Assembly (NCBI RefSeq): GCF_054482525.1
Contig: NZ_JBTHVG010000001.1
Source: a plasmid
DNA: 1,545 bases
Strand: one strand, 5' to 3'
The position numbers were made by a program, and so were the translations under genes. Of the stretch, positions 1 to 1,545 are shown piece after piece. Positions within the stretch are counted from its first letter, which is position 1; every line of letters starts with the position of its first letter. The notes beneath the pieces are model-generated. The model was given only the letters and a program-made list of their open reading frames with translations. It was not told where the DNA came from and ran no database searches.

Positions 1-49
1 ATGTGCAAATGTAATACCGTCACCCGCGACGATATTCCGTTTGCCATCT

Positions 50-74
50 GGTCAGGGCTTCGCCCCGACACCCC
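50..74. repeat. Left copy of a perfect 25-bp inverted repeat (ggtcagggcttcgccccgacacccc)
   Basis: Exact reverse complement of 1366..1390, verified base by base; the match stops on both sides. Confidence 0.9.
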
Positions 75-110
75 GCATCAGTGCGTACGTGCTCAATGTG
101 GTTTCCCGTT

Positions 111-172
111 CTCTTCCGCTTCCTCGCCCACTCGCTCACTAACGTTCGGTCGCTGGGGCTGCGGCGAGCGGT
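111..172 (+). other. ColE1-type primosome assembly site (pas/ssi)-like segment
   Basis: Exact 17-mer ctcttccgcttcctcgc (111..127) and exact 16-mer ggctgcggcgagcggt (157..172), separated by 29 nt of related sequence. This matches my recollection of the pMB1/pUC region just downstream of the ColE1 origin, where the spacing is 27 nt. A short ccgcatcag string sits just upstream (73..81), as in pBR322. Confidence 0.6.
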
Positions 173-476
173 GCCACCTCTCGCATGTTGTCGGTGATTC
201 CGCTGTTGTTCTTCTGGGGATGAGTCGTCAGACAGCCCTTCAAACGCGCTCAGAAGCTCTCAGACGCACGAAACGGGATTTAAATGCCCGTCAGGGCATG
301 GAAGGCGCGAAAAACGCTTACAGAGCGTTTCAGGAGGTCAGGCGCGCCGATACCCCTAGCCAGGGGCTTTCAGGTCGCCAGGAACCGCGTCAGCCCCCTG
401 CAAAGCCCATTTGCACGGTACAGGCAGCCACTCGGTTGGTAGGTGGTCGTAGACCGTCGGTGTTACAGCGATGGGG

Positions 477-526
477 GTCTGGGGTTCTCCCCAGACGGTT
501 TCCGGTTGCGCTCAAGGCGCTGCCGG
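477..526. other. Two adjacent strong stem-loops in a GC-rich, probably non-coding region (candidate structured RNA or origin secondary structure)
   Basis: Stem-loop A: gtctgggg (477..484), loop ttct, ccccagac (489..496), 8 perfect base pairs. Stem-loop B: ccggttgcgc (502..511), loop tcaag, gcgctgccgg (517..526), 10-bp stem with one mismatch and one G-T wobble. Further hairpins at 286..297 (gcccgtcagggc) and 312..330 (aaacgct / agcgttt). Confidence 0.45.
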
Positions 527-666
527 AACCGTGGCGGCTCGGTCGTTCTGGAGATCGGGGAGCAAAAACACGCAAGGGATTTTGAGGCGGCAAAAGAGCA
601 ATGCAGGATAGACAATCATGGTCAGAACGTTAACACGTAACCCCTGATTGTCCGCCTGCCGCTGGC

Positions 667-1146
667 TCAATTTGAAAACATGGCCATGATTCGGCGCTGA
701 ATATCACCGTCTTTGTTGACCAGTGTTTTAGTGACAAACGCCGCGTAGTTTTTAGATGTGTTGTATCCCTTCCAGACTTCATGTGGATCGAGTGCATACG
801 CACAAACCTTACCGGCAACAGGAATTCTGACTAACGCGTTTTTTGATTCTAAGTAGTTGAGCCAGCGCTTAATTGTGCTTCGGCTAACACCCAATTTATC
901 TGCTAAAAACTGCTGATCGGCAACAACAGCACCGCATGAGGGATCTATGTGCTCAGCTAAAAACGAGTAAAGCGGTATTGCTACAACTCCCTGCTTGTCC
1001 TTCGACAGTTCTCGGATCCTTTCCCAGCCCTTCTGATAAACCTGGGTGAATGGGCCGTTATTTTTCGGATCTGGTTCCGATTCTTTGTTTAATTTTTCCA
1101 GTTCTTTTAGACGCTTTTTTCGCTGCTCTTCAGTCCCGATATACAT
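667..1146 (-). CDS. Putative winged-helix DNA-binding protein, 159 aa; candidate plasmid replication initiator and/or autoregulator (Rep-like). Family not verified.
   Basis: Complete ORF on the minus strand: ATG at 1146..1144, stop TGA (tca on + strand) at 667..669, in-frame stop upstream at 1174..1176. GGAG Shine-Dalgarno (ctcc at 1154..1157 on + strand) 7 nt upstream of the ATG. The protein has a charged helical N-terminus (EEQRKKRLKELEKLNKESE) and a typical helix-turn-helix with following wing (ADQQFLADKLGVSRSTIKRWLNYLESKNALVRIP). The Rep function is inferred from context (upstream repeats, AT-rich tract, flanking pas-like and oriT-like DNA), not from recognised sequence homology. Confidence 0.8.
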   Translation of the reverse strand: MYIGTEEQRKKRLKELEKLNKESEPDPKNNGPFTQVYQKGWERIRELSKDKQGVVAIPLYSFLAEHIDPSCGAVVADQQFLADKLGVSRSTIKRWLNYLESKNALVRIPVAGKVCAYALDPHEVWKGYNTSKNYAAFVTKTLVNKDGDIQRRIMAMFSN

Positions 1147-1205
1147 GGTAAATCTCCACGGTCTAATGATGGCTCAAATATAAGCCATCATAGCTCAAAC
1201 GTAAA
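1147..1205 (-). promoter_or_regulatory. Candidate sigma70 promoter and RBS for the 667..1146 gene
   Basis: On the minus strand: -35 TTTACG (+ coords 1200..1205), 17-bp spacer, -10 TATATT (+ coords 1177..1182), then GGAG RBS (1154..1157) 7 nt before the ATG. The -35 is a 4/6 match to consensus; spacing is ideal. Prediction by eye only. Confidence 0.4.
1166..1191. promoter_or_regulatory. Perfect palindrome (9-bp arms atgatggct / agccatcat, 8-bp spacer) overlapping the candidate -10; putative operator
   Basis: Arms at 1166..1174 and 1183..1191 are exact reverse complements; the spacer caaatata (1175..1182) contains the candidate -10 of the minus-strand gene. This arrangement is typical of autoregulated plasmid rep or regulator genes. 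The palindrome is seen directly; operator function is inferred. Confidence 0.5.
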
Positions 1206-1222
1206 CCATGATAGGTCGACCT

Positions 1223-1272
1223 AGCTCACACATGCGTGAGCTAACCTTAGACCATGCATGCGTGAGCTAACC
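1223..1272. repeat. Iteron-like repeat cluster: two identical 16-bp direct repeats (catgcgtgagctaacc) 26 bp apart, the first embedded in a 7-bp-arm palindrome
   Basis: Exact copies at 1231..1246 and 1257..1272. Palindrome agctcac / gtgagct at 1223..1229 and 1236..1242. The core agct(c/a)a recurs at 1192, 1223, 1239, 1265 and 1284. Located just upstream of the candidate -35 of the HTH gene and next to an AT-rich tract (1276..1330). Confidence 0.75.
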
Positions 1273-1335
1273 CATAATGCAAGTAGCTAAAAAATCAATA
1301 ACTTACAAAATCGCCCTTAAATATCTTTTCTGCTG

Positions 1336-1365
1336 AAAGTGTTGCGCAAAGCGGAACACTTTTTT
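1336..1365 (+). terminator. GC-containing hairpin followed by a T-run; intrinsic-terminator-like on the + strand, or alternatively an oriT-proximal inverted repeat
   Basis: Stem aaagtgttgcgc (1336..1347) pairs with gcggaacacttt (1351..1362) with one mismatch, loop aaa, followed by further T residues to 1365. No convincing + strand transcript feeds into it, so function is ambiguous. Confidence 0.3.
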
Positions 1366-1390
1366 GGGGTGTCGGGGCGAAGCCCTGACC
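1366..1390. repeat. Right copy of the perfect 25-bp inverted repeat; coincides with the 5' part of the bom/oriT-like sequence
   Basis: ggggtgtcggggcgaagccctgacc is the exact reverse complement of 50..74. Confidence 0.9.
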
Positions 1391-1428: not shown

Positions 1429-1545
1429 CATCTGCAAGCCTTGTCAGCCGTGATTTTTGCCAGATTTCGCGCTCTCCACGTTCAACAGCTCCATCATGGT
1501 TTTGCCGTCCGTTCACCGTTAAAACGCCTCAGAAATCGGGACAGG

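Follow-up and report, generated by a model that had tools for sequence, protein, structure and literature searches.

Introduction

Relaxase-less small plasmids that carry foreign origins of transfer (oriTs) are mobilized in trans (PMC4743918), and approximately 12% of oriT-bearing Escherichia coli plasmids have more than one oriT (PMC10123127). In two reports (PMC4743918, PMC9282650), pEC156 and pKPN2 are described as containing an F-type and an R64-type oriT, and pSe-Kan as containing a ColE-type and an F-type oriT; pBuzz, cited in the latter report, contains two inversely oriented I-complex oriTs. The R64-type oriT of pEC156, which is 83.9% identical to that of R64, supports mobilization by R64drd11 (PMC4743918). 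Plasmids that combine the lack of a relaxase with multiple oriTs are already a known kind of replicon. The DNA analyzed here, a stretch of 1545 nt (contig NZ_JBTHVG010000001.1; hereafter, the window), contains a perfect 25-bp inverted repeat, and this repeat is very probably the shared terminal module of two oriTs of different types that face each other in such a plasmid.

pBuzz, pEC156, pKPN2, and pSe-Kan are, like the plasmid represented by the window, small, relaxase-less, and equipped with two oriTs, and those plasmids are mobilized in trans. The window differs from them in its combination of a ColE1-type with an R64-type oriT, in the convergent arrangement of the pair with 119 bp from nick to nick, and in the identical terminal module on both origins, which we regard as the source of the perfect inverted repeat. 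A convergent ColE1-type and R64-type pair with a shared module was not found in the literature searched, which excluded the original papers on pKL1.

With respect to the replicon, pKL1 (E. coli KL4, 1549 bp, NC_002145) is colinear with the window, and shares with it the RepA initiator, the repeats upstream of repA, and a stretch resembling the primosome assembly site (pas) of ColE1-like plasmids, as well as the same two-oriT cassette in the same order. It differs in its overall nucleotide identity of only about 82%, in the other repeat arms and the T-variant module (described below) of its NikB-type oriT, and, in the pKL1 record, in a ColE1-side module with one base inserted and one deleted relative to the 25-mer. 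The window has the helix-turn-helix RepA, the upstream repeats, and the size of about 1.5 kb that characterize replicons of the pKL1/Col(MG828) group.

A complete circular plasmid with a perfect inverted repeat

Over its full length, the window is 100% identical to NZ_CP182202.1, the 1545-bp circular plasmid unnamed4 of E. coli EC130 (pig), and it is a complete circular 1545-bp plasmid of the pKL1/Col(MG828) family. Its coding content consists of the replication protein only, with neither a relaxase gene nor mob genes. When a collection of 72,556 plasmids was searched by megablast with the window, 2533 records matched, 1397 of them conjugative. At least 80% of the window was covered in 26 plasmid records; those listed range from 1.5 to 3.0 kb and are mostly 1.55–1.57-kb circles typed as Col(MG828), with the Col(MG828)-type relatives listed having a single annotated gene, for a 159-aa helix-turn-helix protein.

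The sequence at positions 50–74, GGTCAGGGCTTCGCCCCGACACCCC, is the exact reverse complement of that at 1366–1390, GGGGTGTCGGGGCGAAGCCCTGACC, and a repeat search extended the arms to 50–83 and 1357–1390 (34 nt, 88% complementarity). With only about 1e-9 perfect 25-mer inverted pairs expected by chance in 1545 bp of this composition, a chance origin was ruled out, in agreement with a preliminary description of this DNA, made from the letters alone, in which the repeat had been correctly located and judged to be nonrandom. An assembly artefact, which the same description had named as a possible undoing of the left copy, was likewise ruled out: numerous complete records and contigs, independent of one another, contain the pair, which is present with the same 204-bp spacing in the independent complete plasmid records L002, L004, L008, and L009, and also in pKL1 and in many genome and metagenome contigs. 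The flanks were described accurately as well, with the right copy followed by a ColE1-type bom and the left copy by GCATCAG and a pas-like stretch.

On the circle, the distance from arm to arm is 1291 bp the long way and 204 bp the short way (1391–1545 plus 1–49). Because the circle is complete, the arms also bracket this 204-bp short arc, which is where the relevant features are located; the suggestion that, on a circular molecule, the nick region would lie between the copies on the shorter side thus proved to be right. Each copy of the module consists of GGGGT, then GTCGGGGC-GAA-GCCCTGAC, then C—that is, a G+C-rich sequence with an internal 8-bp imperfect hairpin closed by a GAA loop, predicted at −6.6 kcal/mol when folded as single-stranded DNA.

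The R64/IncI1-type oriT

The left arm of the repeat (50–74, minus strand) is the R64-side copy of the module, an identical 25-mer being present in R64 (NC_005014). Between nikA and the nick region, R64 reads GGGGTGTCGGGGCGAAGCCCTGACC-AGATGGCAATTGTAATAGCGTCGCGTGTGACGGTATTACAATTGCACATCCTGTCCCG, containing the exact 25-mer, and the minus strand of the window, read across the circle junction, is GGGGTGTCGGGGCGAAGCCCTGACC-AGATGGCAAACGGAATATCGTCGCGGGTGACGGTATTACATTTGCACATCCTGTCCCG, with the same module, a 17-bp inverted repeat (44–28, 21–5), and the nick region. The 25-mer of R64 also lies at the same position relative to oriT and nikA as the R64-side copy here.

The nick region begins at 1537–1545 on the minus strand (TTGCACATCCTG|TCCCG) and continues at 1–8, and its motif is exact across the junction. 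Indeed, TTGCACATCCTGTCCCG is found without a mismatch on the minus strand across 1537–1545/1–8, and occurs identically in R64 and L001, an IncI-gamma/K plasmid; the nick motif ACATCCTG|TCCCG spans 1545/1, and the junction stretch is contiguous in the rotated record of the relative L008. The nick region is of the RP4/R64 type (..CATCCTG|T..). The rest of the oriT (1–49, minus strand), aligned to L001 and R64, comprises the end of the nick region (1–8), repeat A as the right arm of the 17-bp inverted repeat (5–21, overlapping the nick region), a spacer (22–27), the left arm (28–44), and a 5-bp linker (45–49), with the two arms complementary at 14 of 17 positions as read by eye. Repeat A has one mismatch to that of R64 and the same spacing to the nick; the R64 nick, 8 nt after repeat A at ACATCCTG|TCCCG, is one that we take to correspond to window position 1542/1541 on the minus strand.

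Among the matches listed, large conjugative plasmids match window positions 1–75 only, at 88–98.7% identity and in an unannotated gap. More than 1300 conjugative plasmids of IncI type share this stretch, with identities of 89–98.7%. In L001, 14 bp separate the end of the gap (4001–4075, 98.7% identity to window 1–75) from nikA; nikB comes next, and the two genes are annotated as IncI1-type relaxosome accessory protein and relaxase, respectively. Compared with the oriT of R64/IncI1, the window shares the exact module, a nearly identical repeat A and nick region (GTGACGGTATTACA[A/T]TTGCACATCCTGTCCCG), and the order of module, 17-bp inverted repeat, and nick. It differs from R64 in lacking nikA and nikB, in having the module followed by GCATCAG and pas rather than by the nikA ribosome-binding site, and in the left arm of its 17-bp repeat, which is of the IncI-gamma/K type (98.7% to L001) and not of the R64 type. 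At the level of sequence, the minus-strand element running from 74 to 1537 has the defining features of an R64/IncI1-type oriT. In the literature cited in PMC4743918, repeat A is the NikA-binding arm.

The preliminary description had offered, as one of three readings, a duplicated half-site giving a second, nick-less oriT-like element in the opposite orientation. This was the closest of the three: a second element in the opposite orientation does exist, but it is neither duplicated nor a nick-less half-site, being a complete oriT of the R64/IncI1 family, in which both a 17-bp inverted repeat and a nick motif are present. The element had been missed because it spans the ends of the window.

A member of a 1552-bp subgroup of relatives, L004 (AP026470.1), has a 1-bp deletion in the IncI nick motif (CATC-TG|TCCC versus CATCCTG|TCCC), at the equivalent of window positions 1542–1545 in the short arc. 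This deletion may inactivate the IncI-type origin of that plasmid, leaving the ColE1-type origin intact.

The ColE1-type oriT

The right copy of the module (1366–1390, plus strand; identical 25-mer at the same place in L003, 3004–3028) belongs to a ColE1-like bom/oriT, as the preliminary description had proposed. The segment 1363–1431 is 92.8% identical to the bom of the mob-encoding plasmid CP088798, which encodes MobC, MbeB, MbeD, and Rop, and in which the identical 25-mer is followed by CAGTCACGTAGCGATAGCGGAGTGTATACTGGCTTAA. In the window, the module is followed by the nick region at 1391–1427 on the plus strand (CAGTCACAGAGCGATAGCGATGTGTATACTGG|CTTAA), identified by alignment to the bom of CP088798 and to ColE1 (NC_001371). 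The motif CTGG|CTTA within GTATACTGGCTTAA matches exactly at 1414–1427 and is the same in ColE1 and L003; from work on MbeA, the ColE1 nic lies at CTGG/CTTA, and presumably falls at 1422/1423 in the window. The conserved part of bom upstream of nic is also present, as the module plus CAGTCAC..GCGATAGCG... The region 1366–1427 has the sequence features that define a ColE1-type bom/oriT.

Compared with the ColE1 bom/oriT, whose relaxase is MbeA, the window has the module followed by CAGTCAC...GTATACTGG|CTTAA at equal spacing, and it shares the order of bom and then pas with ColE1-like plasmids; ColE1 itself has a variant of the module with two mismatches and the same nick region. Unlike ColE1, the window has no mbe/mob genes, no rop, and no RNAI/RNAII replicon (none found with Rfam). 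Furthermore, about 184 bp, including the R64-type oriT, lie between nic and the GCATCAG/pas junction in the window, whereas in ColE1-like plasmids this junction comes directly after nic.

Two facing origins as the probable source of the repeat

The transfer cassette of 254 bp contains two complete convergent origins, a ColE1-type bom on the plus strand and an R64/IncI1-type oriT on the minus strand, with the predicted nicks 119 bp apart (1422/1423, plus; 1542/1541, minus). In their home plasmids, both oriT families carry the module at the nick-distal end and in the same orientation relative to the nick, so that placing two such module-bearing origins head to head produces a perfect 25-bp inverted repeat. 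Since the two families carry the module independently, the repeat was not duplicated within this plasmid. We estimate at roughly 85% the probability that the repeat is a nick-distal module common to two transfer origins that face each other, based on the sequence homologies and geometry observed, the conservation of the layout in the plasmid family, and the absence of inversion isomers among the 72,556 plasmids searched. We infer that both origins are active.

The preliminary description had recommended an alignment of related plasmids to see whether the left copy is conserved. In seven relatives, including a lineage of about 90% identity, the layout was found to be kept—that is, module, ColE1 nic, approximately 204 bp, IncI nick, module, GCATCAG, and pas—but the arms were not kept identical. 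The arms differ at one position in L005, L006, L012, L023, L032, and L044, at two positions in L040, and at about five positions in L010. Where a cassette combines an exact arm with an arm that carries the T variant (GGGGTGAAGCCC, a single mismatch), the T lies on the IncI side, and the T variant is the form of the module found in the IncI-gamma/K plasmid L001. This placement of the T indicates that the arms are of separate ancestry and were not selected to match, each evolving with its own origin. The spacer between the two nick regions (1428–1536), examined in a cassette alignment of the window with L002, L004, L005, L006, L008, and L010, is conserved within the plasmid family, with no match found outside it. 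A short BLAST match had pointed to a hybrid oriT in L010, but the alignment showed a chance similarity of GACGCTATCGC, and the hybrid was rejected.

Several points weigh against this explanation. The arms of the window are identical, and yet the closest conjugative match found (L001, 98.7%) has the T variant, so the identity could reflect gene conversion, i.e., an occasional interaction of the arms. Agreement with R64 is poor in the left arm of the 17-bp repeat, though this arm matches IncI-gamma/K plasmids, and the ColE1-type nick region differs from that of ColE1 at 4 of 32 positions upstream of nic. In addition, MOB-suite typing in PLSDB labels near-identical relatives as both "mobilizable" and "non-mobilizable", and the termination role of the module is one reported for R64 (Furuya and Komano).

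Proposed mobilization in trans

Without a relaxase of its own, the plasmid would rely on helpers acting in trans. In a cell containing an IncI-complex plasmid, NikA, which binds repeat A, and NikB would, together with the transfer apparatus, be provided in trans and nick the minus strand, and the ColE1-type region would leave first. In a cell containing a ColE1-type mob set and a conjugative helper, an MbeA-type relaxase would nick the plus strand. The spacer would leave first from either origin, and the module of the origin in use, which on the transferred strand lies 32–53 nt upstream of the nick, would enter last. We likewise infer what the module does in this plasmid: the 25-mer at 50–74 is presumably the distal "8-bp inverted repeat" of the R64 minimal oriT, which, according to Furuya and Komano, reportedly improves termination (recircularization) in R64. 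No role for the inverted repeat as such, whether by pairing or by recombination of the arms, has been demonstrated.

If the two facing origins are the explanation, an eye-catching perfect repeat becomes a by-product of plasmid parasitism, and a one-gene replicon of 1.5 kb would hold two different entry tickets, the first valid with IncI-complex helpers and the second with ColE1-type mobilization systems. The dual origins would help to explain the presence of this plasmid family in E. coli, Klebsiella, Shigella, and Salmonella.

Inversion, pairing, and transposition as alternatives

Recombination between the two copies would flip the 204-bp (or, equivalently, the 1291-bp) arc and produce two isomers, and the repeat could be the substrate or the footprint of such an inversion, as the preliminary description had also considered. 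A perfect identity of 25 bp is near the minimum for homologous recombination, and L007 and L011 have the pas flank (GCATCAGTGCG...) attached to the ColE1-side module, as expected from one exchange at the module. The IncI-side arm, moreover, has the ColE1-like C variant instead of the T of L001, which is compatible with conversion between the arms; the C variant is, however, already present in R64, so conversion is unnecessary. Two chimeric queries were built that represent the junctions expected in the inverted isomer, one on the repA side and one on the pas side. For the repA-side junction, no record in the collection of 72,556 plasmids covered at least 80% of the query, and for the pas-side junction the sole near-full match was a 2967-bp cointegrate with a different plasmid (L009); this junction was otherwise present only in foreign backbones (L007 and the ColE1-like concatemer L011). 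The window also has no recombinase gene, and a flip would leave the convergent layout unchanged, with no obvious phenotype. Thus, inversion is improbable as the explanation of the repeat: exchange at or next to the module probably took place in the past, during evolution, but not as an ongoing flip in this plasmid family.

The cointegrate itself, L009 (NZ_CP138471.1, Klebsiella, 2967 bp), looks like a fusion of a window-like plasmid with a 1.4-kb L007-like plasmid, with two directly repeated ColE1-type nic sites and with the homology to the window ending 4 nt past nic. This is the pattern expected from relaxase-mediated recombination between oriTs, or from an assembly join. L007 (CP066327.1, Salmonella, 1395 bp) is circular, with no annotated gene, convincing open reading frame (ORF), or RNAI. 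It contains two convergent oriTs bracketed by the module, one ColE1-type and one NikB-like with GATGTATCTTG|TCCCG, and its pas-like stretch is attached to the ColE1-side module.

Slightly less probable still is a selected function of the arms as a long stem or panhandle, in which they would pair in the transferred strand (T-strand) and join its ends or present the nicks in a 204-nt loop. As single-stranded DNA, the 254-nt cassette is predicted to fold with the full 25-bp stem at −61 kcal/mol (z-score −8; 0 of 200 shuffles folding as well), and one copy would lie about 170–200 nt from the 5′ end of either T-strand and the other 32–53 nt from the 3′ end. The z-score, however, follows trivially from a perfect repeat, extrusion of a cruciform with a 204-bp loop is not expected in duplex DNA, and one copy is enough for ColE1-like and IncI plasmids to function. 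Furthermore, the relatives with one to five arm differences have no compensating changes. The long stem raised in the preliminary description is therefore thermodynamically possible in single-stranded DNA but is unsupported by conservation.

A miniature transposable element, e.g., a Tn3-derived one, with the 254-bp unit bounded by terminal inverted repeats starting with GGGG, can be dismissed as having next to no chance of being correct: the outer ends of both arms do read GGGG like Tn3-family terminal repeats, and some unrelated intergenic regions of chromosomes contain the exact 25-mer as well, but the interior is wholly accounted for by the two oriTs, and a Tn3-derived or other miniature inverted-repeat transposable element (TIME/MITE) was rejected on the lack of a target-site duplication (TTTTT versus GCATC at the outer ends), which, like the lack of a transposase, had been noted before, and on the presence of the 25-mer as a single copy, at a fixed position and orientation to the nick, in ColE1-like, IncI, and MobQ plasmids.

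The 25-bp module in other origins

Exact-match scans located the 25-mer at 35 loci in one-genome-per-species contigs and at at least 120 metagenome loci; these scans are biased by design, and the counts do not give the share of origins with or without the module. Among the metagenome matches listed with at least 80 nt of downstream flank, 76 were R64-type and 38 ColE1-type, with 3 assigned by pattern to other NikB-type origins and 26 falling outside the patterns. Reading the unassigned and genome-contig matches by eye added NikB-type origins from Dickeya, Yersinia, Rahnella, Erwinia, and Citrobacter, with long repeats that have no relation to the R64 ones, and RSF1010/MobQ-type origins (an inverted repeat, then TAAGTGCGCCCT) that directly abut the module. 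At L108, a gene for a MobA/MobL-like relaxase (MAIYHLSVK...) starts about 17 nt outside the module, and a plasmid from Comamonas has, in succession, a gene annotated as a MobQ relaxase, a module with one mismatch, and a MobQ-type oriT. In a MobQ plasmid from E. coli, the place of the module is taken by another hairpin, GGGTG-CAGGGTT-TT-AACCCTG-CC. A BLAST search of the plasmids with an L048-type MobQ-like oriT gave no match.

The exact 25-mer was thus observed nick-distal to diverged NikB-, ColE1-, and MobQ/RSF1010-like oriTs, in one orientation and with unrelated neighboring repeats (L013, L030, L034, L035, L042, L043, L045, L046, L048, L058, L061, L063, L071, L090, L108, L112, L113, L163, L170). 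In mob-encoding contexts, the first mob gene, which is divergent, has its start codon about 11–25 nt from the outer end of the module. Among module variants, changes are concentrated in the loop and at position 1, and G6→T occurs together with C24→A—both sides of one stem pair—in four variants, a pattern that fits selection for the hairpin.

It is possible, though doubtful on present evidence, that the module is a sharply bounded, portable oriT accessory hairpin that is independent of the relaxase and nick-distal in at least three relaxase groups. If so, it could function, for example, as a termination hairpin or as one protecting the 3′ end on the transferred strand, with a trailing-end priming signal or a stem-loop in the 5′ untranslated region of the divergent mob operon as alternatives, and exchange of the module between origins by recombination would be implied. 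Either way, the shared 25-bp hairpin offers a concrete and cheap target for studying the role of the nick-distal part of oriT.

Exact copies of the 25-mer were also located in intergenic DNA, apparently chromosomal, of distant phyla, namely in L033 (Methylobacterium, between def and a GST gene), L039/L041 (metagenome-assembled genomes of Clostridia), L015/L019 (metagenome-assembled genomes of Phycisphaerae), L024 (Ferrimonas), and L026 (a metagenome-assembled genome of Rubrivivax); oriT features were not recognizable around these copies. Three of the apparently chromosomal 25-mers are directly preceded by another hairpin, GGGAT-CCAAGGG..CCCTTGG-T. Viral contigs gave 0 matches to the 25-mer, and a phage origin was rejected on this basis. 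Rfam scans at gathering thresholds of L007, L172, L041, and L063 returned nothing, and a text search of the literature for the 25-mer sequence returned only pBR322/pUC vector listings.

Replication gene and remaining features of the backbone

The gene for the 159-aa helix-turn-helix initiator of the pKL1 family, repA, occupies 667–1146 on the minus strand (Pfam HTH_36, 4e-6). The Pfam search of RepA detected the HTH_36-type domain and nothing else. RepA is identical to pKL1 RepA at 127 of 162 aligned positions, and the label RepA is also used for the homologue in the annotation of AP026470. Direct and inverted repeats upstream of repA (1166–1272; repeat families D1, D2, D5, I2, and I20) are presumed RepA binding sites and a presumed oriV. 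In pKL1, oriV lies upstream of rep and contains Rep binding sites (PMC3832669).

A terminator-like hairpin followed by a T run (1336–1365, plus strand; inverted repeat I9, 1336–1347/1351–1362, then TTTTTT) adjoins the ColE1-side module externally. On the other side, outside the repeat, the GCATCAG junction and the pas-like stretch (75–173, plus strand) are similar to ColE1-like plasmids, with 96–98% identity for 111–173 and a comparable stretch at 3070–3215 in L003. The block 83–635, which comprises the pas-like stretch and what was called a "structured region", is present at 88–92% identity in plasmids of 4237 bp (H53), 79.8 kb (H54), and 2543 bp (H55), and the match listed to each of them stops short of repA. 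The block may form a module of its own, perhaps an origin or a region for priming. An E-value scan of the window with Rfam gave a chance-level proV match inside repA as its sole match, and nothing over the repeat or the "structured region".

In the RefSeq annotation, positions 1–585 of the plus strand are labeled as a 194-aa "rep protein", and the record begins at its ATG. This ORF crosses the R64-type oriT, the 25-bp module, and the pas-like DNA, and is for that reason probably spurious. The MOB-suite calls in PLSDB are split among nearly the same cassettes (L002, L006, and L009 versus L004, L005, L008, and L174). Plasmids of this kind can be mistyped, both through "non-mobilizable" calls and through a probably spurious "rep protein" ORF over the oriT.

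The window is 20 bp shorter than its 1565-bp relatives, owing to a stretch replaced or deleted just 3′ of the repA stop codon (window approximately 616–653 versus L002 616–673). Around 616–653, the sequence agrees with the 1552-bp subgroup, and the window looks like a mosaic of the 1565-bp and 1552-bp subgroups.

Two-oriT cassettes were also found on genome contigs of 1.3–2.3 kb (L014, L016, L017, L020/L021, L025, L027, L036, L012, and L040) labeled as Flagellimonas, Micromonospora, Clostridium, Aurantibacter, Rhizobium, Bradyrhizobium, Acinetobacter idrijaensis, Streptococcus parasanguinis, and Paramuribaculum; under these labels, the contigs are most likely contaminants. In an E. coli chromosome (NZ_CP146250.1, locus 2244–5341; L173), a full copy of a 1565-bp relative lies between two direct copies of IS26, an arrangement that looks like an IS26-mediated cointegrate.

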